This document shows positions 1 to 29,325 of a DNA stretch of 44,568 nucleotides, piece by piece (position 1 is the first letter of the stretch; every line of letters starts with the position of its first letter). The translations under genes and the position numbers were made by a program. The DNA lies in the UHGV virus genome UHGV-0171754; one strand, written 5' to 3'. The DNA comes from a virus. Below the pieces are notes generated by a model. The model had not been told where the DNA came from. It searched no databases and saw nothing but the letters and a program-made list of their open reading frames with translations.

Positions 1-300
1 GGGGCCAATGACCCCCGTCTAGTCTGAAAGACTGGGCTTTGTCCCGCCTGTCCCGATCGGCTAAACCCCGCGGCAGCACTGGCGGGGACAGGGGTGCTGT
101 CCCGCCTTGTCCCGCCCCATTCTGTCCCGCTTTTTGTCCCGTTTGTTTTATGCACGAAAACTGAATAGATATTCACATTTTGGAGGCGGGACAGATCGGG
201 ACAGCACCCCTGTCCCGCTTTTAATTTATGCAATGAAAGTGAGTATATATGCTGTTTAATGGTGGCGGGACAAAACGGGACGTCCCGCCTGTCCCGCTCC
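1..300. repeat. Element A: dense array of about 13 GTCCCGC / GCGGGAC heptamers in both orientations, following the junction hairpin
   Basis: Copies at about 41-47, 50-56, 83-90(rc), 99-106, 110-116, 124-130, 136-142, 186-193(rc), 197-203(rc), 212-218, 265-272(rc), 277-283(rc), 291-297; no ORF of note on either strand. Confidence 0.8.
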
Positions 301-301
301 G

Positions 302-978
302 TTATGCGGGGTTCTGCCGCGCCATTTCATCCAGCGCAACGCGTTCCATTAGCTTAATATCTTTAAACGCACGCTGCGCGTTTTCGACGCCATGCATCTT
401 AAACAGCCATTCCAGTACGCCGTAGTCGATGCCGTATGCGCCACCGAATCCGGTGCGCCATTGCGTGGAGCAATCTGTGAAGACGGCGACTACCTTCGCG
501 TTGTCGGGCCATAGCGCAACTGGTGGGCAAACATCTTCAGGGGCCGCGCCCCATAAACTCGCGGCTAAATCTTCGGAGGGTGGCGGCGGGCCATAAAAGC
601 GTCGCGCCGCCTCAATTAGTTTTTTTCACGCAATCCCATCAGTTCAAGATAGTACGACGTATGGAACACGCCGAACGCGCGAGGATAGTTAACTACCAGG
701 CGGCGGACGTTCTCCGCGTTAAATTCGTCAGGCAGATTCCAGCCTTCAGCGACGTGCATGATGGCCTCGACCATAACGTTAAAGCCTTCCGGGTCGTTGT
801 CGTCATATTCCGACAGCTTGCGCTCCGTGTCCTGCATGGTCTGCGAAAACTCGTCAATCGGGCGGTGGCGTACTGTAAACGTCATTTTACCCGGTTCGTT
901 CTCACCAGGGCGCGGGATCTCAATCGGCAGCTTAAAGGTCGGTTTAGGGTCTAGTGTAAAGAGTGGTGCTTTAGCCAT
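302..978 (-). CDS. Tail assembly chaperone GT fusion made by programmed -1 ribosomal frameshift
   Basis: Heptamer A AAA AAC (minus strand, plus coordinates 619-625) precedes stop TAA (616-618); the -1 frame stays open for 107 codons (LIEAARRFYGPPPPSEDL...DEMARQNPA) to TAA at 302-304. Confidence 0.6.
616..978 (-). CDS. Tail assembly chaperone (lambda gpG-like)
   Basis: 120 aa ORF starting MAKAPLF with GGAG RBS 8 nt upstream; lies between major tail protein and tape measure genes; ends in slippery site A AAA AAC directly before TAA. Confidence 0.65.
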   Translation of the reverse strand: MAKAPLFTLDPKPTFKLPIEIPRPGENEPGKMTFTVRHRPIDEFSQTMQDTERKLSEYDDNDPEGFNVMVEAIMHVAEGWNLPDEFNAENVRRLVVNYPRAFGVFHTSYYLELMGLREKN

Positions 979-994
979 TGTAGTATTCTCCAAT

Positions 995-1016
995 AAAAAG
1001 GGGCCATACAGGCCCC
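995..1016 (-). terminator. Intrinsic terminator after major tail protein gene
   Basis: Stem ggggcc/ggcccc with 5 nt loop, followed on the minus strand by a T5 run. Confidence 0.55.
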
Positions 1017-1046
1017 ATATTAACACCCGCTATTTAAGCGACCAAA

Positions 1047-1772
1047 TTACGACAGCGCTTCAACCAGGTCCTTACGGTAAATAACCATATCGGATTGCAT
1101 GGTCAGAGTAGACTCCACCGTCTCCACGTTGTTTACTTCAGCGGACGGAATCTTCTGGAAAGACACCTTAGCCGGGTAAATACGAATTTCACCTTTGCCG
1201 CTTGCCGCTGCCGGGTTGGTGAACTTAATCACAGTGGTTTTCTGTGTGTCGTCCAGGTCTTCCAGAATCGGGCGGATCGGGTCTTCTTCGTCGTGGGTGA
1301 AAGTGTAGGTCTGGACCAACGGGTTTTTCGTGGTATTCAGACTGATCGCAGTATTCACCTGCAACGGCTGGAAGGTAGTAGTCTGCTGGTCGCCACCAGA
1401 CACGGCGACGTTAGTGATAAACGGGAAGTCGATAAAGCTCGACACCTTCACCACCTCGCCTGGTGTGCCTACGCTGAAAGCACCGGTCGGGTATTTGGTG
1501 GCGTCTTGAGTATCGAAGCGCGCCAGCGTAACGTCGTTGGTAGCCACTTTACCCACGATGAACGCTCGGTTCAGCGCACGGACCCACGGAGTTTTAGTGA
1601 ACATTACCACGTCGCCGACTTTCAGGCCATGAGAAGCCGCGCAGGTGATAACGCAACCTTTCGTAAGGTCAGAGATAGACGCGGCGGCGTTGGTAGCTGC
1701 CGTAACAGCGATGCCGCTGCCCAGTACGGACCCAATCTGGACGCTAGACCCGTTAGGAAGTTGATAACCCAT
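1047..1772 (-). CDS. Major tail protein
   Basis: 241 aa from ATG (MGYQLPNG) with AGGAG RBS; position immediately upstream of G/GT chaperone; terminator follows. Confidence 0.7.
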   Translation of the reverse strand: MGYQLPNGSSVQIGSVLGSGIAVTAATNAAASISDLTKGCVITCAASHGLKVGDVVMFTKTPWVRALNRAFIVGKVATNDVTLARFDTQDATKYPTGAFSVGTPGEVVKVSSFIDFPFITNVAVSGGDQQTTTFQPLQVNTAISLNTTKNPLVQTYTFTHDEEDPIRPILEDLDDTQKTTVIKFTNPAAASGKGEIRIYPAKVSFQKIPSAEVNNVETVESTLTMQSDMVIYRKDLVEALS

Positions 1773-1833
1773 AATGAACACTCCTGTTTAGATATACGGT
1801 TCAATGATACAGCACGCGCAGAATAGCGCCAAA

Positions 1834-2256
1834 TCAGGCGCAACAGGTGTAGGGGACTGTAACCACGATGCGGGCGCGATCAACGTCCTCAACCACTGAA
1901 CTGGTGTATGGCGCGTCCTGAAGCTGGAATACAGCGCCGGAAATCTTTACCGCCAGCCACTTATCCGACGTAGCGATGGCGTCCGCCAGTTCGCTCGCGT
2001 ACTGTGTGCCAGTACCCGCGGGGAACACAACGGCAACCTGATAAACGCCTGCATATATTCTCCCCTTTTGCTGGAGGCCCACAAACTGGGTCGGGGCCGG
2101 TAGCAGGTACGGCTCCAGGTAGACACCACTCCCGATTGCGTGGTCCCCTTGCACGTTCTCCCAGTTAACCCGGATCGGACGCTGGCTTGTGCTCAGGCGC
2201 GCCGATAACTCTTCTACCACGCTGTTAAGCGCTTTGCGGATTGCGGTATTGCTCAT
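1834..2256 (-). CDS. Tail terminator protein (gpU-like)
   Basis: 140 aa; position directly upstream of major tail gene as in lambda U-V order; start overlaps upstream stop (TAATG). Confidence 0.5.
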   Translation of the reverse strand: MSNTAIRKALNSVVEELSARLSTSQRPIRVNWENVQGDHAIGSGVYLEPYLLPAPTQFVGLQQKGRIYAGVYQVAVVFPAGTGTQYASELADAIATSDKWLAVKISGAVFQLQDAPYTSSVVEDVDRARIVVTVPYTCCA

Positions 2257-2849
2257 TATTTCACCTTCGAATTAATTTCTGCCGCTACGACGCGAACAAT
2301 CCCCGCGGGCGCTTGTTTACTCCAGCCATACTCAAGTCGCTGCGCGTATGGCACGTTGTTAGTAAACCAGATCGACCCGTATTCACTCGAATCGTAGTGC
2401 GCCAGCACTTCACGCCCTGCGGCTAATGTTGCCGTTCCGGCCTTGTCCACGCGGTCAATAGCACCAACAGCCGGGCGGTCAAACGTCACCTGCCAGTTCC
2501 CCCGGAAGCGTCCGCCGGTGTAATTCTTCGCGGCCCAGCCACGCTGGCGGAACGTGACGTTGCCATTTTTAGTCTTGAATGATACCAGCACGCTGGCGTG
2601 CTTTTTCTGCCCGCGCTTCAGTTTGCCACCATTCTTGCGACGCTGCGCGGCGTTCACCTTGTTCGCGTGCTGGCGGGCCAGCGCGTAAGCCCTGTTAATT
2701 TTCCACCGGCGAGGGTCGCCCACCGGGGAGATCTCAATAAGGCGTCCGAGTATTTGCATCCCGTACGCCCGCACCGCCTTATCGTTGTTCTCCTTCGTCT
2801 TATCCACCCACGTAGCAATAGTGGCGGCGAATGAGTAGACTTCAGCCAC
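2256..2849 (-). CDS. Tail completion protein (gpZ-like)
   Basis: 197 aa; GTG start 1 nt after upstream stop with AAGGGG RBS; size and position match lambda Z. Confidence 0.45.
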   Translation of the reverse strand: MAEVYSFAATIATWVDKTKENNDKAVRAYGMQILGRLIEISPVGDPRRWKINRAYALARQHANKVNAAQRRKNGGKLKRGQKKHASVLVSFKTKNGNVTFRQRGWAAKNYTGGRFRGNWQVTFDRPAVGAIDRVDKAGTATLAAGREVLAHYDSSEYGSIWFTNNVPYAQRLEYGWSKQAPAGIVRVVAAEINSKVK

Positions 2850-2850
2850 G

Positions 2851-3204
2851 TTAGCCCCTTAGCTGTAGTTGAAACAGCATGGTCTGGCCTGCCGGTTGCA
2901 GGGGGTTTGGATTGATAACCCGGTAGTCTGTATTGTTCAGGCTAACCAAATCCCCGACCTTTACCTGATTGACGGCCTGACACAAAAACTTCACATCACC
3001 GGCAACGATACGCGTCCCGTCGATCTCGCTCGGCTTGTACTCCTCTCGAAGACCGATGACGTCAAACGAGGTCGGAGGGATGACCACTTCGTCGCCGTCT
3101 ACGCGGTCGACTGTACCAGGACGCGTCACCGTAGCCGTCATGCCGTACTTTTTAATCAGCGGATTGACTTTCCGCTTTAACCCCGCGTAATTAAAGCCCG
3201 CCAT
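2851..3204 (-). CDS. Head-tail joining protein (gpFII-like)
   Basis: 117 aa from ATG (MAGFNYAG) with GGAGG RBS; position between connector and tail completion genes. Confidence 0.5.
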   Translation of the reverse strand: MAGFNYAGLKRKVNPLIKKYGMTATVTRPGTVDRVDGDEVVIPPTSFDVIGLREEYKPSEIDGTRIVAGDVKFLCQAVNQVKVGDLVSLNNTDYRVINPNPLQPAGQTMLFQLQLRG

Positions 3205-9747: not shown

Positions 9748-11133
9748 TTAGTAGAAGTCTACAGTTGGAACAACGGCGATTGGGCGAATCACTGGGAACA
9801 AGTGCGCAATAGGATAGCCCGCTGCGTCATTCATGTGGTCCACCCCGGCCGTTTTATCCGGCTCGCCTTTCTTCAGGTCGTAAACCTGCTGTTCCAGACA
9901 TTTCGCTAGTGTAGGGCATTTATCCAGGTTGACAAAATACTGGCGTACACCCTTCGAGTTGCACATCATCGTATTCATCGCGATCAATCGGTCTTTCACA
10001 GGTGGGTTAACGCTGTCGTACTCCACCTCGAAGCCCGCATCTTCCAGTTGCGCGATATCGGACGACGACGCGTTGACCGTTTTGCGGGATTTTCCGCTGC
10101 TATCCGGATACACGACGACCCTACCGGCGGCACAATGTTCCGGGTAGCGCTCCTCGATCGCCTCAATCATAGCCGGGGTGTCAAACAGGTCCACAAATTC
10201 ATCCACCGCGTGAATCTCGTCGCGGAACTCCTTGTTCTCGGTGGTACGCTGCCGTCTTACATACACGACCGCCGCCATTTTCGTGACGTTAAAGTCTATA
10301 CCGATAATCAGCGTATCGTCCGGTTGTACTTCTTCGGTGCTGGCGTTCTCATCGCGGTTGAACATCTTGTACACCGCGCCCGACGTAAGGTTAACAAACA
10401 GACCGTTCAGGTACGCATCAATCAGGTTCGCCGGGTACTGACTGCGCAGCGTGTCGATAAAGTCTGCCGGTAAATGGTGGTTGTCGGTGGTCTTCGCCCG
10501 GATCAGGCGCTTTTGGCTATCCTTCTCCACCTCGAAAATTTGATACATCGCCCGGTAGCCTTCAGGCGTGGATACTATGACGAACTGGCGGACGAAGCCC
10601 GCACGCAGACGACCTAGCAATTTGTGATATGCCGCCAGCGCGACGTCTTGTTTCGTGGTGTCGAACTCGTCGGCAACAATCCACGCGGCGTTGACCCCGA
10701 TCAGGCGGGTATAGTTCTCCATTGATTCACAGATCACGCGGGTCCATTTGCCTTTCACCAGAACGCTATAGATCTTGTCCTGCTTGTTGAACTTCCACCG
10801 GAAGCCAGCCTCGTCGAAAGCCTTCTCCAGTTCCGGATACATGATTTTAACCAGGAGGGGAATAGTCGGCTCCGTAACAATGCCATCATGACCGGGGTTC
10901 AGGGTTAAAAGCTGGATGACCTTACGCGCAGCGACCCACGACTTTCCGCCACCGAAGCCAGAACACAGGCCGAGGATTTTAGTCTTAGTGTCCCGCAGTA
11001 GTTCGACCTGGTGCGGAAGGCAATCAGGCTGGTAAAGCCGCACCGCCTGCGCAACGCGTGTTGGGCGTGGTGGTCGGTTGCGCTTTGCGATCGTGCGCTC
11101 CAGTGCGCGGTGTTCCGCCGCATAGTTACGCAT
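9748..11133 (-). CDS. Terminase large subunit
   Basis: 461 aa; P-loop GLCSGFGGGKSW and acidic ADEFD motif in the N-terminal ATPase part; start overlaps the small-subunit stop (TAATG). Confidence 0.9.
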   Translation of the reverse strand: MRNYAAEHRALERTIAKRNRPPRPTRVAQAVRLYQPDCLPHQVELLRDTKTKILGLCSGFGGGKSWVAARKVIQLLTLNPGHDGIVTEPTIPLLVKIMYPELEKAFDEAGFRWKFNKQDKIYSVLVKGKWTRVICESMENYTRLIGVNAAWIVADEFDTTKQDVALAAYHKLLGRLRAGFVRQFVIVSTPEGYRAMYQIFEVEKDSQKRLIRAKTTDNHHLPADFIDTLRSQYPANLIDAYLNGLFVNLTSGAVYKMFNRDENASTEEVQPDDTLIIGIDFNVTKMAAVVYVRRQRTTENKEFRDEIHAVDEFVDLFDTPAMIEAIEERYPEHCAAGRVVVYPDSSGKSRKTVNASSSDIAQLEDAGFEVEYDSVNPPVKDRLIAMNTMMCNSKGVRQYFVNLDKCPTLAKCLEQQVYDLKKGEPDKTAGVDHMNDAAGYPIAHLFPVIRPIAVVPTVDFY

Positions 11134-11684
11134 TATTCGCCCTGGCCTTTGCCGGTAGGTTCGACAACGACGTCGCCGTTATCATCTTCGTCGTCATCCA
11201 GTGGGATATCGTCGCGTACGCCGTGGTTGGCTTTAAGCAGGAACGTGGCGAAGCCCGCCGCGATGGTCACGCCGCCAGCTTCCATCAGGAAAGTTTTCTG
11301 CAACTCCATCGCGTCAGCCATCGCCTCGGCGAACTCCTCATGTGCGCGCGCCCAGCGATACAGGCAAGCTACGCCCACACCGATTTCCGCGGCAAATCGA
11401 CCGAAGGTTGGCATTTTGTTGCGGGGGATTACTTGCGCAGCGCCTTTATCGGAGTAGTTGACCTGCCAGGCGTCGGCGTCGGCAAAATAGCGGCGAAGCT
11501 GGTCGCAGTAAACGGATCGGTAGTCCGTAGGGCGTCCACATTTGCCGCCTTTACGGCGCTTGCCGTACTCGATCTCAGGTCCGAGATTGGTATGCTCGGT
11601 TTGCTCGCCTGGTTTACGGCGCGGGGTTACAGCCACTCGTCCGTCCAGTTTGGCGCGTCGGCCCTTAACTTTGATTTCTGCCAT
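11133..11684 (-). CDS. Terminase small subunit (putative)
   Basis: 183 aa from ATG (MAEIKVKGRR) with AAAAGGG RBS; basic N-terminus, acidic C-terminus; directly upstream of large subunit. Confidence 0.55.
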   Translation of the reverse strand: MAEIKVKGRRAKLDGRVAVTPRRKPGEQTEHTNLGPEIEYGKRRKGGKCGRPTDYRSVYCDQLRRYFADADAWQVNYSDKGAAQVIPRNKMPTFGRFAAEIGVGVACLYRWARAHEEFAEAMADAMELQKTFLMEAGGVTIAAGFATFLLKANHGVRDDIPLDDDEDDNGDVVVEPTGKGQGE

Positions 11685-11814
11685 GGTATATGCCCTTTTG
11701 TTCATATGCGCCGACCATCGGCAACATAGGAGACGGCCCTGCCATCTAATTGGGATTATAACAGGCACAAAAAAGCCCACCAAATCGGCAGGCTGGGAGG
11801 CTTACGGGTTGCCG

Positions 11815-15995: not shown

Positions 15996-16145
15996 AATCA
16001 CGCGCATGAAAAAGTCGATCGCTATCTGCTGCAACTGCAAACCGCATTTTTCACCCCCCATTCTGCAACTTGCATTGGTTGCCTAGTTCAGCGACGACCG
16101 CAATCCGCAACATGCTGCCGTGTATTTTGCAATCCTGGATTTTAT

Positions 16146-16198
16146 GCAGTCTCAGACGAGGGGGGTGACAGACCCCCCGTCTAGTCTGAAAGACTGGG
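16146..16198. other. Element B hairpin: interrupted palindrome agacgagggggg-tgacaga-cccccc-gtct plus agtct-gaa-agact
   Basis: Same arms as the window-junction palindrome but different loop (tgacaga versus ccaatga). Confidence 0.6.
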
Positions 16199-16305
16199 GT
16201 GCTGTCCCGCTGTCCCGCTCCTCCCCAGGCCGCGTCATCCGGGGCGGGACAGGGGTGCTGTCCCGCTTTGTCCCGCCTCCTGTTTGTCCCGCTTTTTGTC
16301 CCGCT
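16199..16305. repeat. Element B: array of 7 GTCCCGC / GCGGGAC heptamers, homologous to window positions about 80-150
   Basis: Copies at 16204-16210, 16212-16218, 16245-16251(rc), 16259-16265, 16270-16276, 16285-16291, 16298-16304; block gggacaggggtgctgtcccgc...tttttgtcccg shared with element A. Confidence 0.8.
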
Positions 16306-16349
16306 TACTTTATGCAGTTTTATTGCATAACTATTCACTATATTTACAC

Positions 16350-16471
16350 TACACGGCAACCAATGCGACCAGCTAAAAACACTCAAAATGGCAACCAATG
16401 CGCGCAAAATTTAATCTCTTAGCGATATGGGAATTCCCATACCGGCAACCAATGCGCGCAAAATTTAATCT
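16350..16471. repeat. Iteron-like direct repeats (28 bp x2 plus one partial copy) with a 16 bp perfect palindrome between them
   Basis: ggcaaccaatgcgcgcaaaatttaatct at 16390-16417 and 16444-16471, partial copy ggcaaccaatgcg at 16354-16366; palindrome tatgggaattcccata at 16426-16441; the last repeat overlaps the 3' end of the primase gene. Confidence 0.75.
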
Positions 16472-18735
16472 TTCAGGTCGTCATCGGTCGCCGAAAGCGT
16501 GATGGGTATATTCGTTTTGATGACGATATTCGACGACCCATAGATGGCCCCAGTGTGCGGATCTGTATAAAAACCGAGTACGCCGCGCTCGACCATATCG
16601 TCGATTGCCTTCGTCGATGTGCCACCTTTCGCGAGTCCGGCCTGGCGGACAATTGCCGATTTACTGAATCCAGTATGGTCCGGGTTATCTTCCATCAGTT
16701 TTTCCAGGGCCGCATAAAGCACTTTCTCTTTTTCGTTGCGCGGTCCGGCGGTGTTCTCTTCCTTAACCGCGGCCTTGCCTGCTGCCTTCGCCTGTTCTAT
16801 AGCGAACGGTGCCAGGGCAACCGGTACGAGGTAGAGAGTCTCGTCGCGAGGCGTGGAGGCAATCGGCTTGACGTCCCATCCGGCAACCACGTCGCCGAAG
16901 TCTGGCCCAGTGCTGGTGGACTGGTGCGCCTCGAACGCTTCTGACTTGCGGAGATCTACCTTCACCTTGCACTTGAGCAGGACGAAGCCGCGCGGCGCTT
17001 GCTTGATGCCGTTACGTGACTTCTCATGATACAGGTTCAATTGCCCGGGCTGGTTGTCGTCCGGCTGTTCCAGGAAGAACGCTGAATCGACAGCACCATG
17101 CAGCGCGCCGGACCCGCGTGGGGTTCTGCTGCCGTTTGCACCCTTCGCCGGGTGGTGGATGACGCCCGCACTGCCACCTGTATTTTCCGCAATGGCTTTC
17201 AGCGCTTTGACCACTTCACCCATATCGCTGGCGTTGTTCTCGTCAAACGGTTTAGCATCGGCGGACCGCAGCGCAACAGTCTGGTTGAGTGAGTCGAACG
17301 CCACCAGGCCAACAGGTTCACCGTTAGCGGTGCGATTGATGAAGCTGATAACTTCACGCAAGCCGGACTTGCTTGTGATATCCCAGCCGCGTGATTGCAG
17401 GTCGATAATGTGCAGCTTGTCCAGGTCGTGCTCGTATTTAATCTGCAATGCTTCTTTGCGCTGGTTGGAGGCTTCGCCACCTTCCGCGTCGAAATAGAAG
17501 CAATGAGACTGGACGACCTTCGCACCGCCAAACGGAATACCGGCGGCAACCGCGCCCATCTGCCCAAGCACATAGAAAGACTTACCGATATTCGACTCGC
17601 CAGCCATGTACCAGGTCGATTTAAAGTTAATCAACCCCTCGATGATCGGGTCGTGCTTACTGAACAGCGCAACCGGCTCGTTATCCAGATCCGCATCGGT
17701 GCACACGCCGTATTCTTCGCCGTCGCCAACCGCATCAACAATATGTTCATAGCACGACTCCACTTCCTCGTCGTCCAGCCCCGGAAGGATGGCGGCGATT
17801 TGCTTACGGGACATATTGTGTGGCTCGACGTTCAGGTGGTCCGGGATCCCGATAAGACGTAGCGCCAGGTGCTGGTGTCTGTTCAGTTCCGAGCAACACT
17901 CGTTTCCGGTGTGCATACACTTGAAACGGATCTCGCCATCCTTAACCATTATGGCGGTGGACCCTTCGCCGCTGTGCAGATGTTCGTTCGGGCACGGCAC
18001 CTCATAACCACGCCCGGACGACAGTGGTTCGAATCCTGCCTGGAAGCACCAGTCCAGAATGCCGTCCGCCACTTCGTCGTCTCCCTTGGTTAGTTCGCGG
18101 CGTACTTCCTCTTTATCCACCCCCAGCTTATCCGCCAGGCGAAGCAGACGACGGACGCGGGCACGTTTGCCGTAATGACACTTTATTACAGACTGCTGGT
18201 GTGGCAGGTACATCAGGCGGTTTGTGTCTTTCGTGCAATCGTCGAAGTCCACATCTGACAGACCCAGTTGGGCTAACAGGGCATACTGGGCGCGTCCCAG
18301 GTCTTCAGCCGGTACAGGCTTGTCCGTCAACACCAGGAAGCGAGCGCAACGTGTTCCACCTTTCAGTGGGTGACGGTCGCCGGTTGTGGTGTGAAATACG
18401 TGTTCAAGACCCGCGTCAATGAACGCCTTACGGCAGCGGCGTAGGGTGCGGGTGTCGGTGCGGTCAATATCGAAGAACAGGATCGAGCGGTCCACCGCAC
18501 TGGTCTTACGACGCAATCCGTCACTGGTATACGCCACGATGCCGTCGGCCTTACGCTTGCGGCGCGCATACTCGGCTTTATCTTCCGTCTTGTTGATATG
18601 CACCGAGGAGATTTCTTTCGCATCATTGATAAATTCGAAAAACTCTTCGGTAGTCATCTGGAAGTTTTCCGCCCTGGCTTTTTCGCCTTTTTTAGCGGGT
18701 CTTGTTACGGCGAATTTAATTAAACTCATGGTCAT
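16465..18735 (-). CDS. DNA primase/helicase (N-terminal primase-like domain, Cys cluster, C-terminal RecA-like P-loop ATPase)
   Basis: 756 aa; Walker A AGESNIGKS; Cys cluster CPNEHLHSGEGSTAIMVKDGEIRFKCMHTGNEC. Confidence 0.7.
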   Translation of the reverse strand: MTMSLIKFAVTRPAKKGEKARAENFQMTTEEFFEFINDAKEISSVHINKTEDKAEYARRKRKADGIVAYTSDGLRRKTSAVDRSILFFDIDRTDTRTLRRCRKAFIDAGLEHVFHTTTGDRHPLKGGTRCARFLVLTDKPVPAEDLGRAQYALLAQLGLSDVDFDDCTKDTNRLMYLPHQQSVIKCHYGKRARVRRLLRLADKLGVDKEEVRRELTKGDDEVADGILDWCFQAGFEPLSSGRGYEVPCPNEHLHSGEGSTAIMVKDGEIRFKCMHTGNECCSELNRHQHLALRLIGIPDHLNVEPHNMSRKQIAAILPGLDDEEVESCYEHIVDAVGDGEEYGVCTDADLDNEPVALFSKHDPIIEGLINFKSTWYMAGESNIGKSFYVLGQMGAVAAGIPFGGAKVVQSHCFYFDAEGGEASNQRKEALQIKYEHDLDKLHIIDLQSRGWDITSKSGLREVISFINRTANGEPVGLVAFDSLNQTVALRSADAKPFDENNASDMGEVVKALKAIAENTGGSAGVIHHPAKGANGSRTPRGSGALHGAVDSAFFLEQPDDNQPGQLNLYHEKSRNGIKQAPRGFVLLKCKVKVDLRKSEAFEAHQSTSTGPDFGDVVAGWDVKPIASTPRDETLYLVPVALAPFAIEQAKAAGKAAVKEENTAGPRNEKEKVLYAALEKLMEDNPDHTGFSKSAIVRQAGLAKGGTSTKAIDDMVERGVLGFYTDPHTGAIYGSSNIVIKTNIPITLSATDDDLKD

Positions 18736-18739
18736 AGCC

Positions 18740-19069
18740 TTATTTGGAAGTTTTATTATTGCGTACCCAGGAGCGCACTGTGCTCTGATTAATTCCGGTC
18801 AACTCGGCAATCATCGCCCAAGATTTGCCCTCGGCGCGCAAACGGATAACCTGTTTTTTGTATTCTTCCATTTCTTCATTGTGCTTCTGCAGCTTGCTCG
18901 CCGCCGTACCGTTGAGCAATTCCAGCCTGGCGCGCAATTCTTTTTCGGTAAGTCGCAGACGTTCGATTTCAAATAGCACCGCACCCACGGCATCGGTATA
19001 CGCCCATGACCGGCTTGTCTCACTGCAAACAGTCTTCGTTAACATTTCGATTGCGTCGTTTACATTCAT
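18740..19069 (-). CDS. Transcriptional regulator with C-terminal HTH
   Basis: 109 aa; GAGGG RBS; C-terminal GKSWAMIAELTGINQSTVRSWV is helix-turn-helix-like; coiled-coil centre. Confidence 0.55.
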   Translation of the reverse strand: MNVNDAIEMLTKTVCSETSRSWAYTDAVGAVLFEIERLRLTEKELRARLELLNGTAASKLQKHNEEMEEYKKQVIRLRAEGKSWAMIAELTGINQSTVRSWVRNNKTSK

Positions 19070-19275: not shown

Positions 19276-19471
19276 TCACCCCGTCGACAGGATGCAGGAC
19301 GCAAACTGGAGAGGGGCAACGCAGGGGCCGGATCGAAGTGTCAGGATTCCCAACCGTGATTATATAACCTGGTCCACTACCCGAAAGGGAGAACGCGCAA
19401 CCAGGCAATATGTTAAGGCCACCGACGAAGTTAACTGCCGACACCTAAACTTAACCAATCGGAGATATACC

Positions 19472-20011
19472 ATGTTTGAGCAAATCGGAAACCTGATCAC
19501 TCGCGGCGTAGTAGCACTGGAAATCATCGCTAAGCATTATGAAACCGTTGGCGCTGCCGTAGACCCAAAAGCAAACGGCACCGCTAAGAAAGGCAAGGCC
19601 AAGCCGGAGACTGAAGTCGAAGACGACGATCAGGACGAAGTCGAAGATACGCCTAAAACGAAAAAAGGCGCGGCAAGAGAAACCAAGTCTAAAGGTAAGG
19701 CCAAAAAAGAAGTCGTAGAAGATGACGACGACGATGACGCCGATGACGTGAAACCAGCGAAGGGTAAAAAAGCACCGGCGAAAGGCAAAGGCAAGAAAGA
19801 TGCCGATCCGCTGGCAGAGATGCGCGACGAAATCAAACAGTATGCCGCGATTATCGCCGGTGGTGATGACGACGATGCTAACGACGAATTTGATGACCTG
19901 CTGGAAGCGTTCGAGATCAAATCGATCGCTAAACTGGAAGATGACGACGTAGAAGACTTCCACAAAGACCTGAAAGAAATCGTCGAAACCTATTTCGAAC
20001 TGGAAGACTAA
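19472..20011 (+). CDS. Highly charged low-complexity protein (acidic runs alternating with Lys-rich stretches), first gene of rightward early operon
   Basis: 179 aa from ATG (MFEQIGNLITRG) with GGAGA RBS; segments EVEDDDQDEVEDT, VVEDDDDDDADDV, KPAKGKKAPAKGKGKK, GGDDDDANDEFDD; terminator follows. Confidence 0.65.
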   Translation: MFEQIGNLITRGVVALEIIAKHYETVGAAVDPKANGTAKKGKAKPETEVEDDDQDEVEDTPKTKKGAARETKSKGKAKKEVVEDDDDDDADDVKPAKGKKAPAKGKGKKDADPLAEMRDEIKQYAAIIAGGDDDDANDEFDDLLEAFEIKSIAKLEDDDVEDFHKDLKEIVETYFELED

Positions 20012-20017
20012 TATTAT

Positions 20018-20047
20018 CCGGCCCGCTAATCTGCGGGCCTATTTTTA
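20018..20047 (+). terminator. Intrinsic terminator or attenuator
   Basis: Stem gcccgc/gcgggc with 6 nt loop, then ctattttt. Confidence 0.55.
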
Positions 20048-20059
20048 GAGGACGAGACA

Positions 20060-20311
20060 ATGGCACGCTTCACGCTAATCGAGGCGGTGGATTCCCGCGA
20101 CCAGCGCCCGTACTATTGGCTATTCGAACGCATCGGCAGCTTTCAGTCACGCGTTGCCGTAATAGATAAACGCCGTAACACCCCCGCGCAAATTAAGCGC
20201 ACCACCTTTACTAACCCCGACTTTTATATTTGGGCGGATTCCAATCTGGAATATGTTCGCTTCGCAGTTGCATCCGAAGCAAAAACAATTGACCGCTGGG
20301 AGACAAAATAA
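20060..20311 (+). CDS. Small hypothetical protein (83 aa)
   Basis: GAGGA RBS 7 nt before ATG. Confidence 0.5.
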   Translation: MARFTLIEAVDSRDQRPYYWLFERIGSFQSRVAVIDKRRNTPAQIKRTTFTNPDFYIWADSNLEYVRFAVASEAKTIDRWETK

Positions 20312-20500
20312 ATGGCTATATTCTTTGTTTTATTTCGTTGCCGTATTACCGGCGACGAGCAACCGGAAATTGTTATGAATCAAAACTGGAATTGCTGCTG
20401 GATGCAAGCCCGAGGACTGGCGGCTACCATGAACAATGCCGCTAAGCGGGCCAATGTTGAACATGATTATTACATTGCTCAGTTTTCAAGGGTGGAATAA
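20312..20500 (+). CDS. Small hypothetical protein (62 aa)
   Basis: ATG directly after upstream stop; weak RBS; Cys/Trp-rich. Confidence 0.3.
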   Translation: MAIFFVLFRCRITGDEQPEIVMNQNWNCCWMQARGLAATMNNAAKRANVEHDYYIAQFSRVE

Positions 20501-21930
20501 TGGCGATTAAACCAAAACGTAAAACGCAATCCGGTAGCAATACGGAACACTCATTACTTGGGCCATCCGGTGCTAAAAAGTGGATGGGTTGCCCTGCTGC
20601 CCTGGTGGTGGAAAAAGATATCCCGAACGAATCCGGGCAGGCCGCGATTAACGGTACGAGTATGCACACCGTATCTGAGGTGGTGCTAAACCGCATTATC
20701 GCCGGTGAGAAGCAGATAACCGCGAAGACGTATAAAGGGTGCTACGTCGAGAACGAAGGCAAGGGGCCAGTAAAGGCACACCCGAAAGCGCCGAAAGGCG
20801 GCGTGCTGGTCAACGACGATATGGTTAAACAGTGCGACGCGTACATCGACCACTGGCGACCGCTCCTCGAAGTGGCGGAGTTTGTTCAGCTTGAGATGCG
20901 CGCCGATCTCACCCGCGTCCTACACTCTGGCTTCGAGATCGACGGCAACCGGGTTAAGACGTTCGGCACTGCGGATATGGTCATGGTCATGAAGAAGACC
21001 GACGGCACGTACATGCTGATTGTTGGCGACCTGAAGACGGGGCGGCATAAGGTCGAGGCGAAAGAAAACAAACAGCTTATGCTGTATGCGCTCGGCCTGC
21101 TGCGCAAGCTGCAATCCATGTACGACATCACGACCGTGCGCCTGGTTATCTTCCAGCCATATTGCGGCGGGGCGTCGGAGTGGGATATTTCGGTAGAAGC
21201 CCTGGAGATATTCGCGAAGTTTGCGTCCAAGCGTGCTATCGCCGCCCTGGAAGCGTACGCCCGCGGCAAGAAGGGACTAACCCGCGCGGACTTCCGGCCC
21301 AGCGTCGATGCGTGCCAGTGGTGTCGATTTGCGGATCAGTGTAGTGCCCGCGCTAAGGCCGCAATCGACACGATGACCCCACCGACGGCAACCGACGAAG
21401 ACCTGGGCGACGACGTGAGTATTGCGACAGAGGAAGAATGCGCCAACCATGCCCGCAATATGGCCCGCGAAGCCCGGAAGGCGGCTCGACGCGCGAAGCG
21501 TGGTAAGAAAGAAGCAGCCCCCGGTGCTATGAGCGCTGCGGAACTGCGCAAGGCTTATGAAGGCCTGGACGCAATGCGCCAGCACATCAAGGCTATCGAG
21601 TCCGCGGTATTCAAGGCGGTCATGGCTGGCGATGGCGAATCGCTGGGCCTCAAGATGGTTGCCGGTAGGGAAGGGGTCCGTAAGTGGGCGGACGAGAGCG
21701 AAGTGATTGAAATCTTCACGAAGGCCCGGATCAAGCGCGATGTGATGTACAAAGAAACATTGCTCAGTCCTACGGATGCCGAGAAGGTATTGAAGGACGA
21801 GAAGCCGAAAGTGTGGGCTAAATTATGTAATAAAATCACGCGCGCACCGGCTAAACCGGTATTAGCACCCATCGACGACCCGCGCCCTGCGTGGTCGGAG
21901 GCCACTGACGAGGACTTAAGCAATGAATAA
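20500..21930 (+). CDS. PD-(D/E)XK nuclease of the Cas4/RecB-like class (resembles DUF2800) with C-terminal Cys cluster
   Basis: 476 aa; motifs GTADMVMV, VGDLKTGRH, QLMLYALG and CQWCRFADQC; start overlaps upstream stop (TAATG). Confidence 0.7.
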   Translation: MAIKPKRKTQSGSNTEHSLLGPSGAKKWMGCPAALVVEKDIPNESGQAAINGTSMHTVSEVVLNRIIAGEKQITAKTYKGCYVENEGKGPVKAHPKAPKGGVLVNDDMVKQCDAYIDHWRPLLEVAEFVQLEMRADLTRVLHSGFEIDGNRVKTFGTADMVMVMKKTDGTYMLIVGDLKTGRHKVEAKENKQLMLYALGLLRKLQSMYDITTVRLVIFQPYCGGASEWDISVEALEIFAKFASKRAIAALEAYARGKKGLTRADFRPSVDACQWCRFADQCSARAKAAIDTMTPPTATDEDLGDDVSIATEEECANHARNMAREARKAARRAKRGKKEAAPGAMSAAELRKAYEGLDAMRQHIKAIESAVFKAVMAGDGESLGLKMVAGREGVRKWADESEVIEIFTKARIKRDVMYKETLLSPTDAEKVLKDEKPKVWAKLCNKITRAPAKPVLAPIDDPRPAWSEATDEDLSNE

Positions 21931-22105
21931 AGTATTTGCGATCTTATTGATGTTTTTGCTCGGCGCGCTGGGCTTTATCCTGCATTGCGTGCAAGGCGTG
22001 TTAATGGTGGCGTGGATTGCGAGACATGGCGACCGACCGCCGTTAAGCTGGGTCGAGAACACCATCTACTATGTGACCAGAAATCTTTTTAATGAAAATG
22101 CTTGA
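21923..22105 (+). CDS. Small membrane protein (60 aa)
   Basis: Hydrophobic N-terminus (VFAILLMFLLGALGFIL); GAGGA RBS; overlaps upstream stop. Confidence 0.4.
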   Translation: MNKVFAILLMFLLGALGFILHCVQGVLMVAWIARHGDRPPLSWVENTIYYVTRNLFNENA

Positions 22106-22137
22106 CCGCTTAGGCGCAACCAAGTAGATTAGCAACC
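22102..22137 (+). promoter_or_regulatory. Candidate promoter (TTGACC-17-TAGATT) with two GCAACCAA octamers
   Basis: -35 at 22102-22107, -10 at 22125-22130, octamers at 22116-22123 and 22130-22137. Confidence 0.4.
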
Positions 22138-22195
22138 AAGCCGAACGGGGTGGCTCATAATAACCCCGATACATGTGAGAATGAGGAATTGGAAA

Positions 22196-22912
22196 ATGGC
22201 TAAAGTCAACCTGAAAAATGTGCGCGTATGTTTCCTTAAAATTTGGGAACGTGATACCCCTAAACAGGATGGACAAAAACCGGCATACCGTGCAGTGATT
22301 CTTCTTGATAAAGAAGATCCGCAGGTGGACAAAGTGGAAGCGGCAGCGCGCGCAGTGCTCACCGACAAGCTGAAATCCGAGAAGAATGCTGATAAGTGGA
22401 TGGACCGCCACTACGCCCAGGATTCTAAGGAATGCGCAGTCCGCGACGGTGACGAGCGCGACGAAGTAACCGAAGAATTCGAAGGCATGTTGTACATCAA
22501 CGCTAAATCGTTCAAACAGCCAAACATTCAAACGTCACTCGGCGAGAAGCAGACTGAACAAGGTCTGACCGTAGAAGGCGACGAGATCGAAGGCCAGGAG
22601 ATCTACTCCGGTTGTTATTGCAACGTGTCCCTGGATATTTGGGCGTGGAACAATACCAACGGCAAGGGACTCGGTGCCGGTCTTTTGGGTCTGCGCTTCC
22701 GCGATGACGGCGAAGCCTTCGGCGGTGGCGGATCTTCTTGCTCCGACGAAGACCTGGGCGACGACGACGAAGATGAAGTGCCACGCAAGTCCAAAAAGTC
22801 AAAACGTCGTGATGACGATGACGAAGATGAAAAACCTCGTAAACGTCGTAAGCCACGCGATGACGAAGATGATGACGACGACGAAGCGCCACGTAAACGT
22901 CGCCGCCGTTAA
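22196..22912 (+). CDS. Putative ssDNA-binding protein (resembles DUF2815) with charged low-complexity C-terminal tail
   Basis: 238 aa from ATG (MAKVNLKNVRVCF) with GAGGA RBS; lies between the Cas4-like nuclease and DNA polymerase; tail DDDEDEVPRKSKKSKRRDDDDEDEKPRKRRKPRDDEDDDDDEAPRKRRRR. Confidence 0.55.
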   Translation: MAKVNLKNVRVCFLKIWERDTPKQDGQKPAYRAVILLDKEDPQVDKVEAAARAVLTDKLKSEKNADKWMDRHYAQDSKECAVRDGDERDEVTEEFEGMLYINAKSFKQPNIQTSLGEKQTEQGLTVEGDEIEGQEIYSGCYCNVSLDIWAWNNTNGKGLGAGLLGLRFRDDGEAFGGGGSSCSDEDLGDDDEDEVPRKSKKSKRRDDDDEDEKPRKRRKPRDDEDDDDDEAPRKRRRR

Positions 22913-22930
22913 GGGCAAAGCCCACTATTC

Positions 22931-22957
22931 AAGCCCGCTTAATGCGGGCTTTTTAAT
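22931..22957 (+). terminator. Intrinsic terminator or attenuator
   Basis: Stem agcccgc/gcgggct with 5 nt loop, then ttttaat. Confidence 0.6.
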
Positions 22958-22970
22958 AGGACAATGAAAA

Positions 22971-23141
22971 ATGCGCATTAAAGCCAGCGAAGTAAAAGTC
23001 GGAATGCAGGTATGGTCTAAATTGCTGGGCGAGTATTTCACCGTTGCCGAGATTCGCAACAACGGCGAGGAGATAACCCTTTCCGACGGTATCTTCTCCA
23101 TGTTCGGCAGCGCTGACGCCGTAGTGAGGATTAAGCAATGA
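22971..23141 (+). CDS. Small hypothetical protein (56 aa)
   Basis: MRIKASEVKVGMQVWSKLLGEYFTVAEIRNNGEEITLSDGIFSMFGSADAVVRIKQ; AGGA RBS; stop overlaps polymerase ATG (ATGA); below track threshold. Confidence 0.4.
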   Translation: MRIKASEVKVGMQVWSKLLGEYFTVAEIRNNGEEITLSDGIFSMFGSADAVVRIKQ

Positions 23142-25429
23142 AAGACTTCGAACGCCTTTTTCTCGATACCGAGACATTTAGCGGGGTGGACCTGAAGAAA
23201 GTGGGCGCATACGCCTACGCAGAGCACCCAACAACCGAGATTATGATTTGCACCTACGCCATCGACGAGGGCCGCGTGCAGACATGGGATTGCACAGAGT
23301 CCCCAACAATGCCGCGTGAACTGCGCAAGGCGCTCCGCAGGGTATCCCGCAAGAAAGCAAAAATAGTGATGGCTAACGGCCTCCTGTTTGACCGCCTGGT
23401 CATTCGCGAGAAGTGGGGCATTGACCTGCCAGTGTGCCAGATCGAAGACACCATGATTATGGCCTTTCGACACGCGCTGCCGGGTGGCCTCGATATGCAG
23501 TGCCAGGTGTTGGGCGTTGACGCAGAGCACGCGAAGGATAAGGCGGGCAAGGCGCTGATCAAACGATTCTGTAAGCCAACCCCTAAGACCTACAAAATCC
23601 GCCGCTACACGCGCGAGACGCACCCCGAGGAGTGGGCTAAATTCCTGCGCTATGCCGCGTTGGATATCATCGCTATGAGGGAAGTCTATTGGCGCATACC
23701 GGACTGGGGCAACACGCCGAAGGAAGACGAAATCCTGCTTATTGACCAGTTGATCAATGACCGCGGCTTCTATGTGGACGTTGACCTGGCGAACGCCGCG
23801 ATCAAAGCGGTGCAGGCGCATAAGGAAGAATTGAAGGAAGAAGCCTGGGAGCGCTTCGGCGGTAAGCTGACCGGCAATGACTTCTTGCCCGCGCTGCGCG
23901 ACCTCGCGCCTGCGTTCACGATCCACAACGCGCAGAAATCCACGCTTAACGACCTGCTTGAAGATCCAGACTTCCCTGACGAGGGCAAAGTGCTTATCGA
24001 GATGCGCCTCGGGGCATCATCAACGGCGTCGACTAAGTACAATCCGCTCGTAAATGGGCTGTCTGCCGATGGTCGCCGCCGTGGTTGTCTTCAGTATGGT
24101 GGGGCAAAGCGCACGCTACGCTGGGCCGGTAAGGGCTTCCAGCCGCAAAACCTGGCACGCGGCGAGTATAGCGACGACCACGAAGGGAAGATTAAGCGCC
24201 GTGAAGGCGAGAGCGACGTCGCGTTTTGGGTGCGGTCGCACATGCTTACCAACGGCATCAACTCCCTGTTACGCGGGACCGCACACTGGGCGTATGACAT
24301 ATCGAAGTTAACAGCCTCGACCGTTCGCGGGTGCATTATTCCGGCTAAGGGAAAGAAGTTTGTCGTAGCGGACTATTCTAACGTGGAAGGGCGTGGCCTC
24401 GCCTGGATCGCTGGCGAGAAAACCGCGCTAATGGTGTTTAGGGCGGGTCGCGATATTTATTGTGAAACTGCCGGTAAGATGTTTGGCCTCGACCCGGAAT
24501 ACATTAAAGCCAACCGCAAAGACTTACGCCAGATCGGTAAGGCGTGCGAATTGGGACTAGGCTATGGCGGCGGCGTTGCGGCGTTCTTGCAGTTCGCTAA
24601 AAACCTGGGCCTCGACCTTTACGCGATGGCTGACGTGATGAAGGGCACATTCCCAGACCACATATGGGCGGCGGCGAAACGTGGTTATGAGTACGCCCGA
24701 ATCAACGAAGCGAAGCGCCCGCCGAAGCCTGGCAAGAAGGACGAGCGCCCAACTTATATACTGCCGAAAAACGTGTGGTTGACGTGTGACGCGATCAAAC
24801 GTATGTGGCGTGAGGCCCACCCGAAGACGGTAGCCTTTTGGGCCGAACTGGAAGACGCGGTGTTGTGTGCAATCCGCAATCCAGGCAAAGCGTACTGGGC
24901 TGGCGCGAACGTTCGCCCGGATGGCAGGAAAGCGCTTAAGATTGTTCGCACGAAGGCGAAGCATGACCCAACCTTCGACGAGGAGCGCGACGACCCGAAC
25001 GCGGCGGGGTGGTGGCTTAAAATTGAGTTGCCGTCAGGGCGCATCATGAGTTATCCGGGCATCGCGCTGTCTGTCACTACCGAGATCGACGAAGATACTG
25101 GCAAGAAACGCACCAGCACCCGCATTAAATACCAGGGCGAGAATCAGACGACGCGCCAGTGGGGCTTCCAGTATACCTACGGCGGCAAACTGACGGAAAA
25201 CATCGTGCAGGCGCTGTGTCGCGATATCCTCGCATGGTCCATGCCTGGCGTTGAATCCGCGGGATACGAGATCGTCCTGTCAGTGCACGATGAATTGATC
25301 ACCGAAGTTCCGGATACTGACGACTACACGACCGAGGAGCTATGCGCGCTGATGTGCGACCTGCCTATTTGGGCGAAAGGGTTCCCACTTGCCGCCGAAG
25401 GCGATTGTATGTATCGCTACCGCAAGTAG
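23138..25429 (+). CDS. Family A DNA polymerase with 3'-5' exonuclease domain
   Basis: 763 aa; exo motif FLDTETFSG; polymerase motif A DYSNVEGRGLAWIAGE, motif B RQIGKACELGLGYGGG, motif C SVHDELITEV. Confidence 0.9.
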   Translation: MKDFERLFLDTETFSGVDLKKVGAYAYAEHPTTEIMICTYAIDEGRVQTWDCTESPTMPRELRKALRRVSRKKAKIVMANGLLFDRLVIREKWGIDLPVCQIEDTMIMAFRHALPGGLDMQCQVLGVDAEHAKDKAGKALIKRFCKPTPKTYKIRRYTRETHPEEWAKFLRYAALDIIAMREVYWRIPDWGNTPKEDEILLIDQLINDRGFYVDVDLANAAIKAVQAHKEELKEEAWERFGGKLTGNDFLPALRDLAPAFTIHNAQKSTLNDLLEDPDFPDEGKVLIEMRLGASSTASTKYNPLVNGLSADGRRRGCLQYGGAKRTLRWAGKGFQPQNLARGEYSDDHEGKIKRREGESDVAFWVRSHMLTNGINSLLRGTAHWAYDISKLTASTVRGCIIPAKGKKFVVADYSNVEGRGLAWIAGEKTALMVFRAGRDIYCETAGKMFGLDPEYIKANRKDLRQIGKACELGLGYGGGVAAFLQFAKNLGLDLYAMADVMKGTFPDHIWAAAKRGYEYARINEAKRPPKPGKKDERPTYILPKNVWLTCDAIKRMWREAHPKTVAFWAELEDAVLCAIRNPGKAYWAGANVRPDGRKALKIVRTKAKHDPTFDEERDDPNAAGWWLKIELPSGRIMSYPGIALSVTTEIDEDTGKKRTSTRIKYQGENQTTRQWGFQYTYGGKLTENIVQALCRDILAWSMPGVESAGYEIVLSVHDELITEVPDTDDYTTEELCALMCDLPIWAKGFPLAAEGDCMYRYRK

Positions 25430-25497
25430 CGGAAATGTTGCTTTTAGCGGAAACGTCGGGCAATATTGTCTGGCGTTTTCTTTTTCGGGGGTGTATA

Positions 25498-26099
25498 TGA
25501 AACATTGTGGGCGTTGTAATACGGATAAAGATGAGTCCGCTTTCAACAAGGGTCAGTCGTGGTGCGCCAAATGCATGGCGGCGTATAAGAAAGAGAGACG
25601 GGATAAGGAAAGAGGAGCGCCGCCGCGCGAAGTATGGCGAGAGTATACCGGGGAAGTCGTAACATGCCGTACGTGCGGAGAGCGCAAGCGGCTCACGCCG
25701 GAAAACTTCCGGCCCGGAAACCGGGCAAGCCAGTCTCATATTCGTAAAGAATGCCGGTTGTGCGCTAATAAGTCCCGCCGTGAGTACAACCACCGGTCAC
25801 CAGAGGTCCGCGCATACTATAAGCTCTTTCAGTACCGTAAGGCGGACGAAAGGAAGGGGTTAAAAACCGACCTTACCACCGAGGACGTGCTACGCCTTAC
25901 TTCTCAGCCATGCGCGTACTGCGGATTCACCGGCGACAATGGCGCGGACCGACTCGACAACGCAGTAGGCCATACGAAAGATAACTGCGTACCGTGCTGC
26001 GTAGAGTGCAACATAGCCCGCGGTGACCGGTTTACCCCGGACGAAATGAAGAAGTTTATTGGGCCTGCCATAGCTGCCGTAAGGAAAAGCCGACAATGA
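25498..26099 (+). CDS. HNH endonuclease with N-terminal Cys-rich zinc-ribbon region
   Basis: 200 aa from ATG (MKHCGRCNTDKD) with GGGGG RBS; C-terminal CAYCGFTGDNGADRLDNAVGHTKDNCVPCCVECNIARGD. Confidence 0.6.
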
Positions 26100-26374
26100 C
26101 ACCAGAAGGCAAGATCCAAAGTCACCTTATGAAGTTGGTTAAAGCCGTAGGCGGATTCTGCCGTAAAGTGGCATGGGAGGGGCGCGCGGGTGCGCCCGAT
26201 CTGATTATCATCATCAACGGCAAAATAGTGTTCGTCGAAGTGAAGCGCCCAGGCGGCAAACCGAAGCCGCACCAGATACGAGAACATGAGCGAATGGCCC
26301 GCCGCGGTGCGGACGTTCGCGTTATCGACAACATAGCAGACTGTGATTTATTGGTTGCTGAGTTGGTCGCGTAG
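26096..26374 (+). CDS. VRR-NUC domain nuclease
   Basis: 92 aa; PDLIIIINGKIVFVEVKRPGGKPKPHQ signature; start overlaps upstream stop (ATGA). Confidence 0.65.
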   Translation: MTPEGKIQSHLMKLVKAVGGFCRKVAWEGRAGAPDLIIIINGKIVFVEVKRPGGKPKPHQIREHERMARRGADVRVIDNIADCDLLVAELVA

Positions 26375-26414
26375 CGGTATAGTGGGCCGGTTAGCACTAT
26401 CGAGGATTTTAGAA

Positions 26415-26588
26415 ATGGTTGAAGAAAAACGTTGCAGTAATTGCGGCTGCGTTAAACCGCTGTCCCAGTTCCATAAATACACCGGTAAGACTGCGCGAAG
26501 CCCGGACGGGTATCGGGCAGAGTGCAAATCGTGCCGCAATAAAAAAGAGCGCGAACGGCAGCGCCGCTACCGAGCAGAGCAAAAATAA
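26415..26588 (+). CDS. Small zinc-ribbon protein (57 aa)
   Basis: ATG (MVEEKRCSNCGC) with GAGGA RBS; CxxC...CxxC pattern resembling the N-terminus of the HNH protein. Confidence 0.4.
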   Translation: MVEEKRCSNCGCVKPLSQFHKYTGKTARSPDGYRAECKSCRNKKERERQRRYRAEQK

Positions 26589-26631
26589 TTAATACGGCGG
26601 GCTTGTCCCGCCATTTTTTGGAGACATGACG

Positions 26632-26850
26632 ATGAAAGAACATTATCGACTCACCACACTGGGCGAATGCAAACCAGGCGATCGCGTATGGTTTATCGCG
26701 GGCATGAATAACCCGCTGCCGTTAACGGTGTGCTGGCAAAAATTTAATAGCTTCCGGGCGACGGGTGTACACATCGGACACAGCACCAACTATGACGCCA
26801 CAAAAAGGAACTGGAACAGTGAAACCGAAGTCTGGAAAAAGGCGGAATAA
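26632..26850 (+). CDS. Small hypothetical protein (72 aa)
   Basis: ATG (MKEHYRLTTL) with GGAGA RBS. Confidence 0.4.
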   Translation: MKEHYRLTTLGECKPGDRVWFIAGMNNPLPLTVCWQKFNSFRATGVHIGHSTNYDATKRNWNSETEVWKKAE

Positions 26851-26854
26851 AGAT

Positions 26855-29291: not shown

Positions 29292-29296
29292 ATTGG

Positions 29297-29325
29297 TTGC
29301 ATAACCGTATTGGTTGCATTATATT
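29297..29325 (+). promoter_or_regulatory. Candidate promoter (TTGCAT-17-TATATT) with two direct TTGGTTGC octamers
   Basis: Octamers at 29295-29302 and 29310-29317; second ends 2 nt before the -10, same spacing as at 5874/5884 and 31235/31245. Confidence 0.45.

Follow-up and report, generated by a model that had tools for sequence, protein, structure and literature searches.

The viral DNA analyzed here, the 44,568-bp UHGV virus genome UHGV-0171754 (hereafter the window; GC = 54.6%), is very probably the complete genome of a virulent, headful-packaged Dhillonvirus of the HK578/SSL-2009a/SO-1 group, cut arbitrarily, most likely by assembly, inside a conserved hairpin that lies between the genes for tail assembly chaperone T and the tape measure protein. 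Because linearization inside the hairpin appears to be arbitrary, the ends of the window would not be ends of virion DNA; given packaging by the headful mechanism, virion DNA in the Dhillonvirus group is terminally redundant and circularly permuted. Packaging series of close relatives start at a pac cut equivalent to window position 16031/16032, beside an internal repeat region ('region B'), and proceed toward lower coordinates. Approximately 159 Dhillonvirus records are 93-96% identical to the window over its length, including those of coliphages HK578, SSL-2009a, JL1 and EC115 and of Sodalis phage SO-1, and the gene order of the window is that of these phages.

As stated, the finding is an ordinary one, because the feature is already annotated in the SO-1 record and the packaging mode of the genus has been published. 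Its value is corrective: the ends of deposited phage records are no evidence of virion ends, and a palindrome at a record junction can be an assembly break. Taking the junction as a cos site, e.g. for cosmid-style vectors or in orienting genomes, would be wrong, the usable packaging start being 16031/16032.

The last 15 nucleotides of the window, cagtctcagacgagg, and the first 35, ggggccaatgacccccgtctagtctgaaagactggg, both of which had been quoted exactly in a first-pass annotation made from the letters alone, read CAGTCT-CAGACGAGGGGGG-ccaatga-CCCCCGTCT-AGTCTGAAAGACTG when joined. On either strand they form a single GC-rich, imperfect hairpin of ~50 nucleotides (dG, the folding free energy, -28.1 and -28.4 kcal/mol; z -4.1 and -5.2), and none of 200 shuffled sequences folded as well. 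The pairing comprises outer CAGTCT/AGACTG and middle CAGAC/GTCTG segments and a core G5-6/C5-6 stem closed by a 7-nt loop. The palindrome is split between the window ends as follows.

Positions 44554-44568, no strand assigned: 5' arm of the long palindrome, CAGTCTCAGACGAGG, which runs on into window position 1.
Positions 1-35, no strand assigned: remainder of the palindrome, i.e. the rest of the G run, the variable 7-nt loop ccaatga, the 3' arm CCCCCGTCT, and AGTCT-GAA-AGACT.

With a 570-nt query spanning the joined ends, the junction was crossed as one contiguous alignment in 142 of 157 related records, and in EC115 window positions 1-3000 and 41500-44568 fall at adjacent record coordinates. 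The joined-end hairpin is, base for base, the HK578 copy, so no bases have been lost or duplicated, and closure of the genome at the junction is exact as judged from these sequence comparisons. The circular closure proposed in the first-pass annotation is thus confirmed by the relatives, and of its suggestion that the window is a complete genome linearized at a defined end the first half holds; the second half does not, the mapped terminus of the relatives being at 16031.

Within the genus the arms of the hairpin are invariant and the loop alone varies (24 distinct variants from relatives). With invariant arms, a covariation check cannot tell whether the element is a structure, of RNA or DNA, or a dyad site for a protein, the Edwardsiella phage eiAU, of another genus, providing the sole cross-genus comparison. 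Neither strand of the long palindrome shows the T run that marks an intrinsic terminator. Rfam 15 at its gathering threshold gave no match in the window or over the contiguous junction in SSL-2009a; below threshold, at relaxed E-values, it returned only noise resembling microRNA hairpins.

The evidence on packaging consists of published, PhageTerm-based data for close relatives. Headful packaging was reported for Opt-212 (PMC9022532), headful packaging with a pac site for UDS3lw (PMC13348001), and permuted, P1-type headful pac packaging for BF9 (PMC10059673); four of five bov phages were found to be circularly permuted (PMC8407724). The BF9 supplement lists a single terminus, on the - strand at 28168 (T=0.53, p=8e-65), with all other positions at T<=0.04 (PMC10059673). 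Aligned to the window, this position falls exactly at 16031. The records of both UDS3lw and PTXU06 open with the same bases, CAGCAGATAGCGATC, and the Zar3M and Pandora71 records start at the same base; in the PTXU06 study genomes were linearized where most sequences ended abruptly (PMC6563267). Because the BF9 peak and the record starts fall there, the packaging start of the group is placed at window 16031/16032.

Positions 16017-16040, - strand: pac cut region, reading TTGCAGTTG and CAGCAGATAGCGATC on the two sides of the cut; 5' end of packaged DNA at 16031, packaging toward lower coordinates.

The cut lies 115 bp from the internal copy of the hairpin and ~4.3 kb upstream of terS (11133-11783). 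The cut sequence, TTGCAGTTGCAGCAGATAGCGATC, occurs once in the window (16017-16040, - strand), even with five mismatches allowed, and a window search at up to five mismatches did not find it at the junction. The first-pass annotation had suggested looking for a pile-up of read starts at the junction; in BF9, the one relative through which this check was run, there is no read-start peak at the junction equivalent near 11848. A packaging-start terminus on one strand is therefore found in the relatives at 16031, beside region B, and not at the junction, and the idea of a defined physical end at the junction is not supported, the genus being headful and permuted and window 16031 being the sole mapped terminus of its close relatives.

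The large terminase subunit, TerL, matches Terminase_6N/6C (T4-like), and the small subunit, TerS, gave weak matches to GP3_package (P22) and Sf6_terminase, both below Pfam cut-offs. Compared with the headful pac systems of P1, P22 and SPP1, the Dhillonvirus relatives are alike in having one precise - strand terminus with other ends distributed, as in the P1 type, and a repeat-rich non-coding region; they differ in that their site, at window 16031, is neither within terS nor adjacent to it but ~4.3 kb upstream, and in that the junction copy of the repeat region is uncut.

Several observations weigh against an arbitrary break in a headful-packaged genome. One of the five bov phages was called 'fixed' (PMC8407724), although this does not point to the junction. 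For another Dhillonvirus, EE09, the describing paper claims a 10-nt 5' cos, ATCTTAAGGG, for a genome given as 97% complete. The ends of the EE09 record correspond to window 29320/29321, which is intergenic, contiguous in the window, and neither the junction nor the pac cut; an exact copy of the claimed cos was not found in the window, which reads atattgaggg at that point.

The third observation is that breaks recur in the repeat region that surrounds the junction, hereafter region A. In a comparison of record break points within ~420 bp (window 1-420) and at homologous sites, at least six related or identical-site records, together with eiAU, proved to be linearized within region A (at 1, 12, 23, 288, 293 and ~364), a clustering beyond that expected by chance. 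The CHD5UKE2 record opens at window 12 and closes with a repeat of its initial ~127 nt, and UAE_MI-01, a Geneious circular contig with no termini analysis (PMC8281071), starts at window 23. PNS1 breaks at 288 and Lzu_P3 at 293, both with a 127-nt overlap between the record ends, as would be expected of an untrimmed circular contig, and BEK2-2 breaks at ~364. The shotgun contigs of eiAU ended in its region A homolog and were closed by polymerase chain reaction (PMC3025963). Several of the break points are at palindrome centers. We infer that the clustering reflects an effect of assembly or sequencing at GC-rich palindromes and repeats; beside sequencing difficulty, recurrent breaks at region A palindromes could also mark real structure-specific DNA ends or nicks.

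The unusual position of the junction element, which had been remarked on in the first-pass annotation, is real: the 384 bp that separate the T chaperone from the tape measure gene are conserved and rich in repeats. The flanking genes as originally assigned, with a chaperone stop at 302 and a tape measure start at 44485, are supported by domain matches, and all lie on the - strand. Region A is a conserved 384-bp non-coding module, in which 13 (T)GTCCCG(C) heptamers, in both orientations, are arranged around two AT-rich tracts, together with the hairpin. Apart from the long palindrome, its parts are as follows.

Positions 40-56, + strand: two direct TGTCCCG heptamers, 9 bp apart (motif positions).
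Positions 80-142, + strand: an inverted heptamer pair, forming the hairpin GGCGGGGACAG-gggtg-CTGTCCCGCC, then four direct heptamers at 98, 108, 123 and 135; positions kept in 15 relatives and in the internal paralog.
Positions 143-185, no strand assigned: AT-rich tract 1, 70% AT, with TTTATGCA.
Positions 186-217, no strand assigned: two inverted heptamers and one direct heptamer, CGGGACAGATCGGGACAGCACCCCTGTCCCG, with a terminator-like hairpin on the + strand.
Positions 218-264, no strand assigned: AT-rich tract 2, 72% AT, with TTTATGCA.
Positions 265-297, - strand: two inverted and two direct heptamers, with the perfect palindrome CGGGACGTCCCG at 276-287 followed by TTTT on the - strand.

The heptamer, with the consensus (c/t)TGTCCCGC(c/t)T, is both over-represented and clustered. 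TGTCCCG occurs 23 times in the window, against 6.4 +/- 2.5 expected, a count reached in none of 100 shuffles, and 18 of the 23 copies fall within 40-296 or 16203-16303. The shorter GTCCCG is present in 13 copies in 41-296 and seven in 16204-16303. Heptamer positions are conserved among 15 copies of region A and 17 of region B. The genome has five copies of TTTATGCA, none of them outside regions A and B (147, 225, 16141, 16309 and 44501), and their orientation relative to the genes is inconsistent. A role for this motif as a DnaA box was considered and dropped, as its conserved part does not include the CACA half. GTC within the heptamer was likewise considered as a possible T7-type primase site, and was not adopted. 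Copies of TTATGCA resembling it occur in the gaps that follow the helicase-primase genes of eiAU and of the Hafnia phage TS33. Small open reading frames inside region A are annotated as 'hypothetical protein' in relatives, e.g. bas15_0018 in PaulFeyerabend; owing to the repeat content they are probably not genes.

The internal element at 16146-16198, to which the first-pass annotation had likened the joined ends, proved to be a true paralog with identical arms, the 7-nt loop reading tgacaga there and ccaatga at the junction. It belongs to region B, the main parts of which are listed here.

Positions 16146-16305, no strand assigned: internal paralogous module, the core of the SO-1 'region B', with the same palindrome, seven heptamers and TTTATGCA.
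Positions 16355-16456, + strand: in the interval separating the array from the helicase-primase stop codon, the palindrome ATGGGAATTCCCAT and three direct GGCAACCAATGCG repeats, of which a 28-bp direct repeat contains two.

The two regions remain similar over ~190 bp, a stretch that takes in the heptamer array and reaches a shared TTTATGCA...ATTCAC. Identity between A and B is nearly the same within a genome (0.844) as between genomes (0.832) and is below that of A with A (0.91) and of B with B (0.90), and the two are therefore old paralogs; the near equality of the within- and between-genome values also rules out gene conversion as what keeps A and B alike. Beyond the core, the 28-bp direct repeat GGCAACCAATGCGCGCAAAATTTAATCT is present twice in 16390-16464, with the 14-bp perfect palindrome ATGGGAATTCCCAT (16427-16440) between the copies, and adjoins the stop codon of the helicase-primase gene. 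Region B of UDS3lw (record 43500-44071) has an extra copy of the hairpin, with a heptamer abutting its 5' side, so that hairpin copy number varies within the genus.

Both regions have precedents. The SO-1 record (GenBank GQ502199 / NC_013600) names a 'region A' between gp16 (T) and gp17 (tape measure) and a 'region B' after the helicase-primase gene gp48, and describes them as direct, inverted and palindromic repeats that are similar to each other, adding a remark on a possible function. The loci are the same and the sequence is homologous, with no difference in kind, such that the window is another member of the same set. Literature searches found no functional study of either region. Three lineages have region B immediately after the helicase-primase gene. 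In eiAU, whose helicase-primase is 45% identical, two paralogous regions are found at the same two positions, after the helicase-primase gene and between T and the tape measure gene; they carry GCAACCAA repeats and, before the tape measure gene, a hairpin that has in common with the Dhillonvirus one the AGACGGGGG...CCCCTCGTC core and a bulged T but different outer pairs. They differ from the Dhillonvirus regions in that the C-rich repeat is (T)CGCCCCG, not GTCCCGC, in that the hairpin is present in eiAU region A only, and in that an HNH-like open reading frame is inserted. In phage TS33 a helicase-primase homolog is followed by a repeat-rich gap. Paired repeat-and-hairpin modules thus occur in at least two phage genera and were flagged as early as a 2009 GenBank record. 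Knowing what binds the heptamers would point to the origin or the late-gene switch of these phages, which now figure widely in collections for therapy and biocontrol.

With respect to function, we tentatively favor the possibility that A and B are arrays of iteron type, with an origin-like or regulatory role, to which a DNA-binding protein specific to this phage lineage would bind. Multiple identical short repeats are present in non-coding DNA, as the 13 and seven GTCCCG copies indicate, and AT-rich tracts lie next to them: the arrays of region A surround the two tracts at 143-185 and 218-264, and the array of region B adjoins a third (16305-16354, 74% AT), compared with 45% AT for the genome. 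The best candidate binder of the heptamers would be a winged helix at the C terminus of the helicase-primase, the gene for which is given below with the two genes that flank region A; a 109-aa helix-turn-helix protein would be the alternative.

Positions 16465-18735, - strand: replicative helicase-primase, AAA_25, phrog_3228, with a predicted C-terminal winged helix.
Positions 302-1026, - strand: tail assembly chaperone pair, G at 616-1026 (Phage_TAC_4) and the T-frame open reading frame (DUF1799), stop at 302.
Positions 41843-44485, - strand: tape measure protein gene, TMP_2 and Tape_meas_lam_C, start at 44485.

The last ~90 residues of the helicase-primase are predicted to form a winged helix (pLDDT, the predicted local distance difference test score, ~85; C-terminal part 585-756, corresponding to window 16468-16983, - strand). 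Against the eiAU homolog the whole protein aligns, at 45% identity, except for the recognition helix and the wing, and this divergence parallels the change of heptamer between Dhillonvirus and eiAU. A Pfam search with the C-terminal 172 residues returned no match, and a sequence search of the helicase-primase against the PDB gave a marginal match to RepA only.

Short iterons bound by a helicase-primase or a Rep helicase are known from P4 ori/crr and from the ori of SaPI, the Staphylococcus aureus pathogenicity islands, and regions A and B would, by analogy, act like the P4 ori/crr pair or SaPI ori. The resemblance would lie in 7-8-bp iterons in both orientations, in flanking AT-rich DNA, in two similar cis regions, and in the placing of one of these immediately 3' to the gene for a helicase-primase with a winged helix predicted at its C terminus. 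In contrast with P4 alpha, which is of the superfamily 3 (SF3) type, the helicase here is RepA/DnaB-like (AAA_25), with no sequence similarity, and the second region here lies inside the tail operon. That A and B are the two halves of a single replication element resembling P4 ori/crr, in a virulent siphovirus, bound by the winged helix, with B coupled to pac and A inside the tail operon, is a doubtful proposition at this stage. The terminator-like hairpin after gene T would also reduce read-through into the tail-tip genes.

Four points weigh against an iteron function or against the winged helix as the binder. TS33 has neither a GTCCCGC array nor a region A. The fold matches of the predicted winged helix, which were to MarR, MepR-DNA and the origin recognition complex, are weak, all with E>0.04. 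The 109-aa helix-turn-helix protein is also lineage-specific, which makes it an equally good candidate binder, and region A is far from the helicase-primase gene. GC skew follows the direction of transcription (minimum near 19 kb, maximum near 32 kb) and is uninformative on an origin.

Transcriptional control accounts for the two regions nearly as well as an iteron function, and is likewise a possibility rather than a probability. Regions A and B divide a - strand operon of ~31 kb, and the hairpins after T and in B would stop or attenuate read-through, an activator or repressor of the phage would bind the heptamers and turn on promoters located in the AT-rich tracts, and the long hairpin, formed in the 5' leader, would stabilize or process the downstream mRNA. 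Both modules are situated between co-directional genes, on the sense strand, B at the boundary of replication and late genes and A before the tape measure and tail-tip genes. The HK578 homolog of the CGGGACGTCCCG site with its TTTT, which lies after gp16, was marked as a rho-independent terminator by the HK578 annotators, and the core of the sense-strand hairpin is conserved upstream of the eiAU tape measure gene, with different outer pairs. Annotated sigma-70 promoters are found only at the divergent early region, so the late genes need some other control, and the operon opens with the gene for the lineage-specific 109-aa helix-turn-helix protein, which is sigma-70 region-4-like. However, a sigma-70 scan of both strands of both modules gave no promoters, the last heptamers abut the hairpin and leave no room for -35 and -10 elements, the long hairpin is without a U tract, and there is no Rfam family match. 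The sole candidate from a terminator scan of both modules was the + strand hairpin of inverted heptamers.

The heptamer-hairpin module may alternatively be an accessory of packaging, being the TerS recognition element of the pac site in B, with A as a non-cleaved paralog that, for example, titrates or loads terminase. The nearness of region B to the pac cut and the conservation of the module between A and B, at ~84%, accord with such a role. TerS is 44% identical between Dhillonvirus and eiAU (aligned core), yet the heptamer is completely different, and region A is not cleaved in BF9; for these reasons a packaging role for the heptamers is less likely than either an iteron or a transcriptional function. 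It is, moreover, GCAACCAAT sites rather than heptamers that immediately flank the cut, and we consider this explanation improbable.

Arrays of short repeats beside a cut site are a feature of P1 pac, SPP1 pacL/pacR and lambda cosB. The model put forward in the first-pass annotation, which has the small terminase binding the GTCCCGC array and cleavage, of cos type or, in a variant, at a secondary pac site, taking place in the joined palindrome, draws on that analogy, on the paralogous module 115-270 bp from the true pac cut, on a rotationally symmetric element adjoining a short-repeat array as in lambda cosN/cosB, and on the database records that break inside region A palindromes, but is very improbable, because BF9 has its single PhageTerm terminus on the region B side and nothing above T=0.04 near region A, the genus is reported to be headful and permuted with no fixed ends here, the junction lacks the cut sequence and, with T on one side and the tape measure gene on the other, is 11 kb from the terminase genes and not adjacent to terS, TerL is of the Terminase_6 type with a weakly P22/Sf6-like TerS rather than of a lambda-type or other cos-type lineage, and the eiAU and UAE_MI-01 break points come from assembly and not from end mapping.

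The wider gene layout comprises two long units. That on the - strand starts at ~19069, with the gene for the 109-aa helix-turn-helix protein (18740-19069), and descends through the helicase-primase gene to the lysis genes, terS and terL (11783-9748), the head and tail genes, and the tail chaperones G and T (1026-302), then crosses the window junction to the tape measure gene (44485-41843) and continues into the tail-tip and fiber genes. The + strand unit, with early and replication genes, occupies 19292-32469.

Another repeated motif, GCAACCAAT, is present in 15 exact copies, compared with ~0.34 expected for a 9-mer, and all are intergenic or at gene starts.

Positions 5870, 5884, 15419, 15953, 15984, 16074, 16356, 16391, 16445, 19260, 26350, 29292, 29309, 31223 and 34339: copies of GCAACCAAT.

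Copies flank the pac cut; one forms part of a palindrome at 31223-31242, and the best early sigma-70-like promoter has one in its spacer. The motif is probably a phage operator or promoter element. The point 29320/29321, to which the EE09 record ends correspond, lies just after a pair of these sites. The eiAU genome has 23 copies of GCAACCAA.

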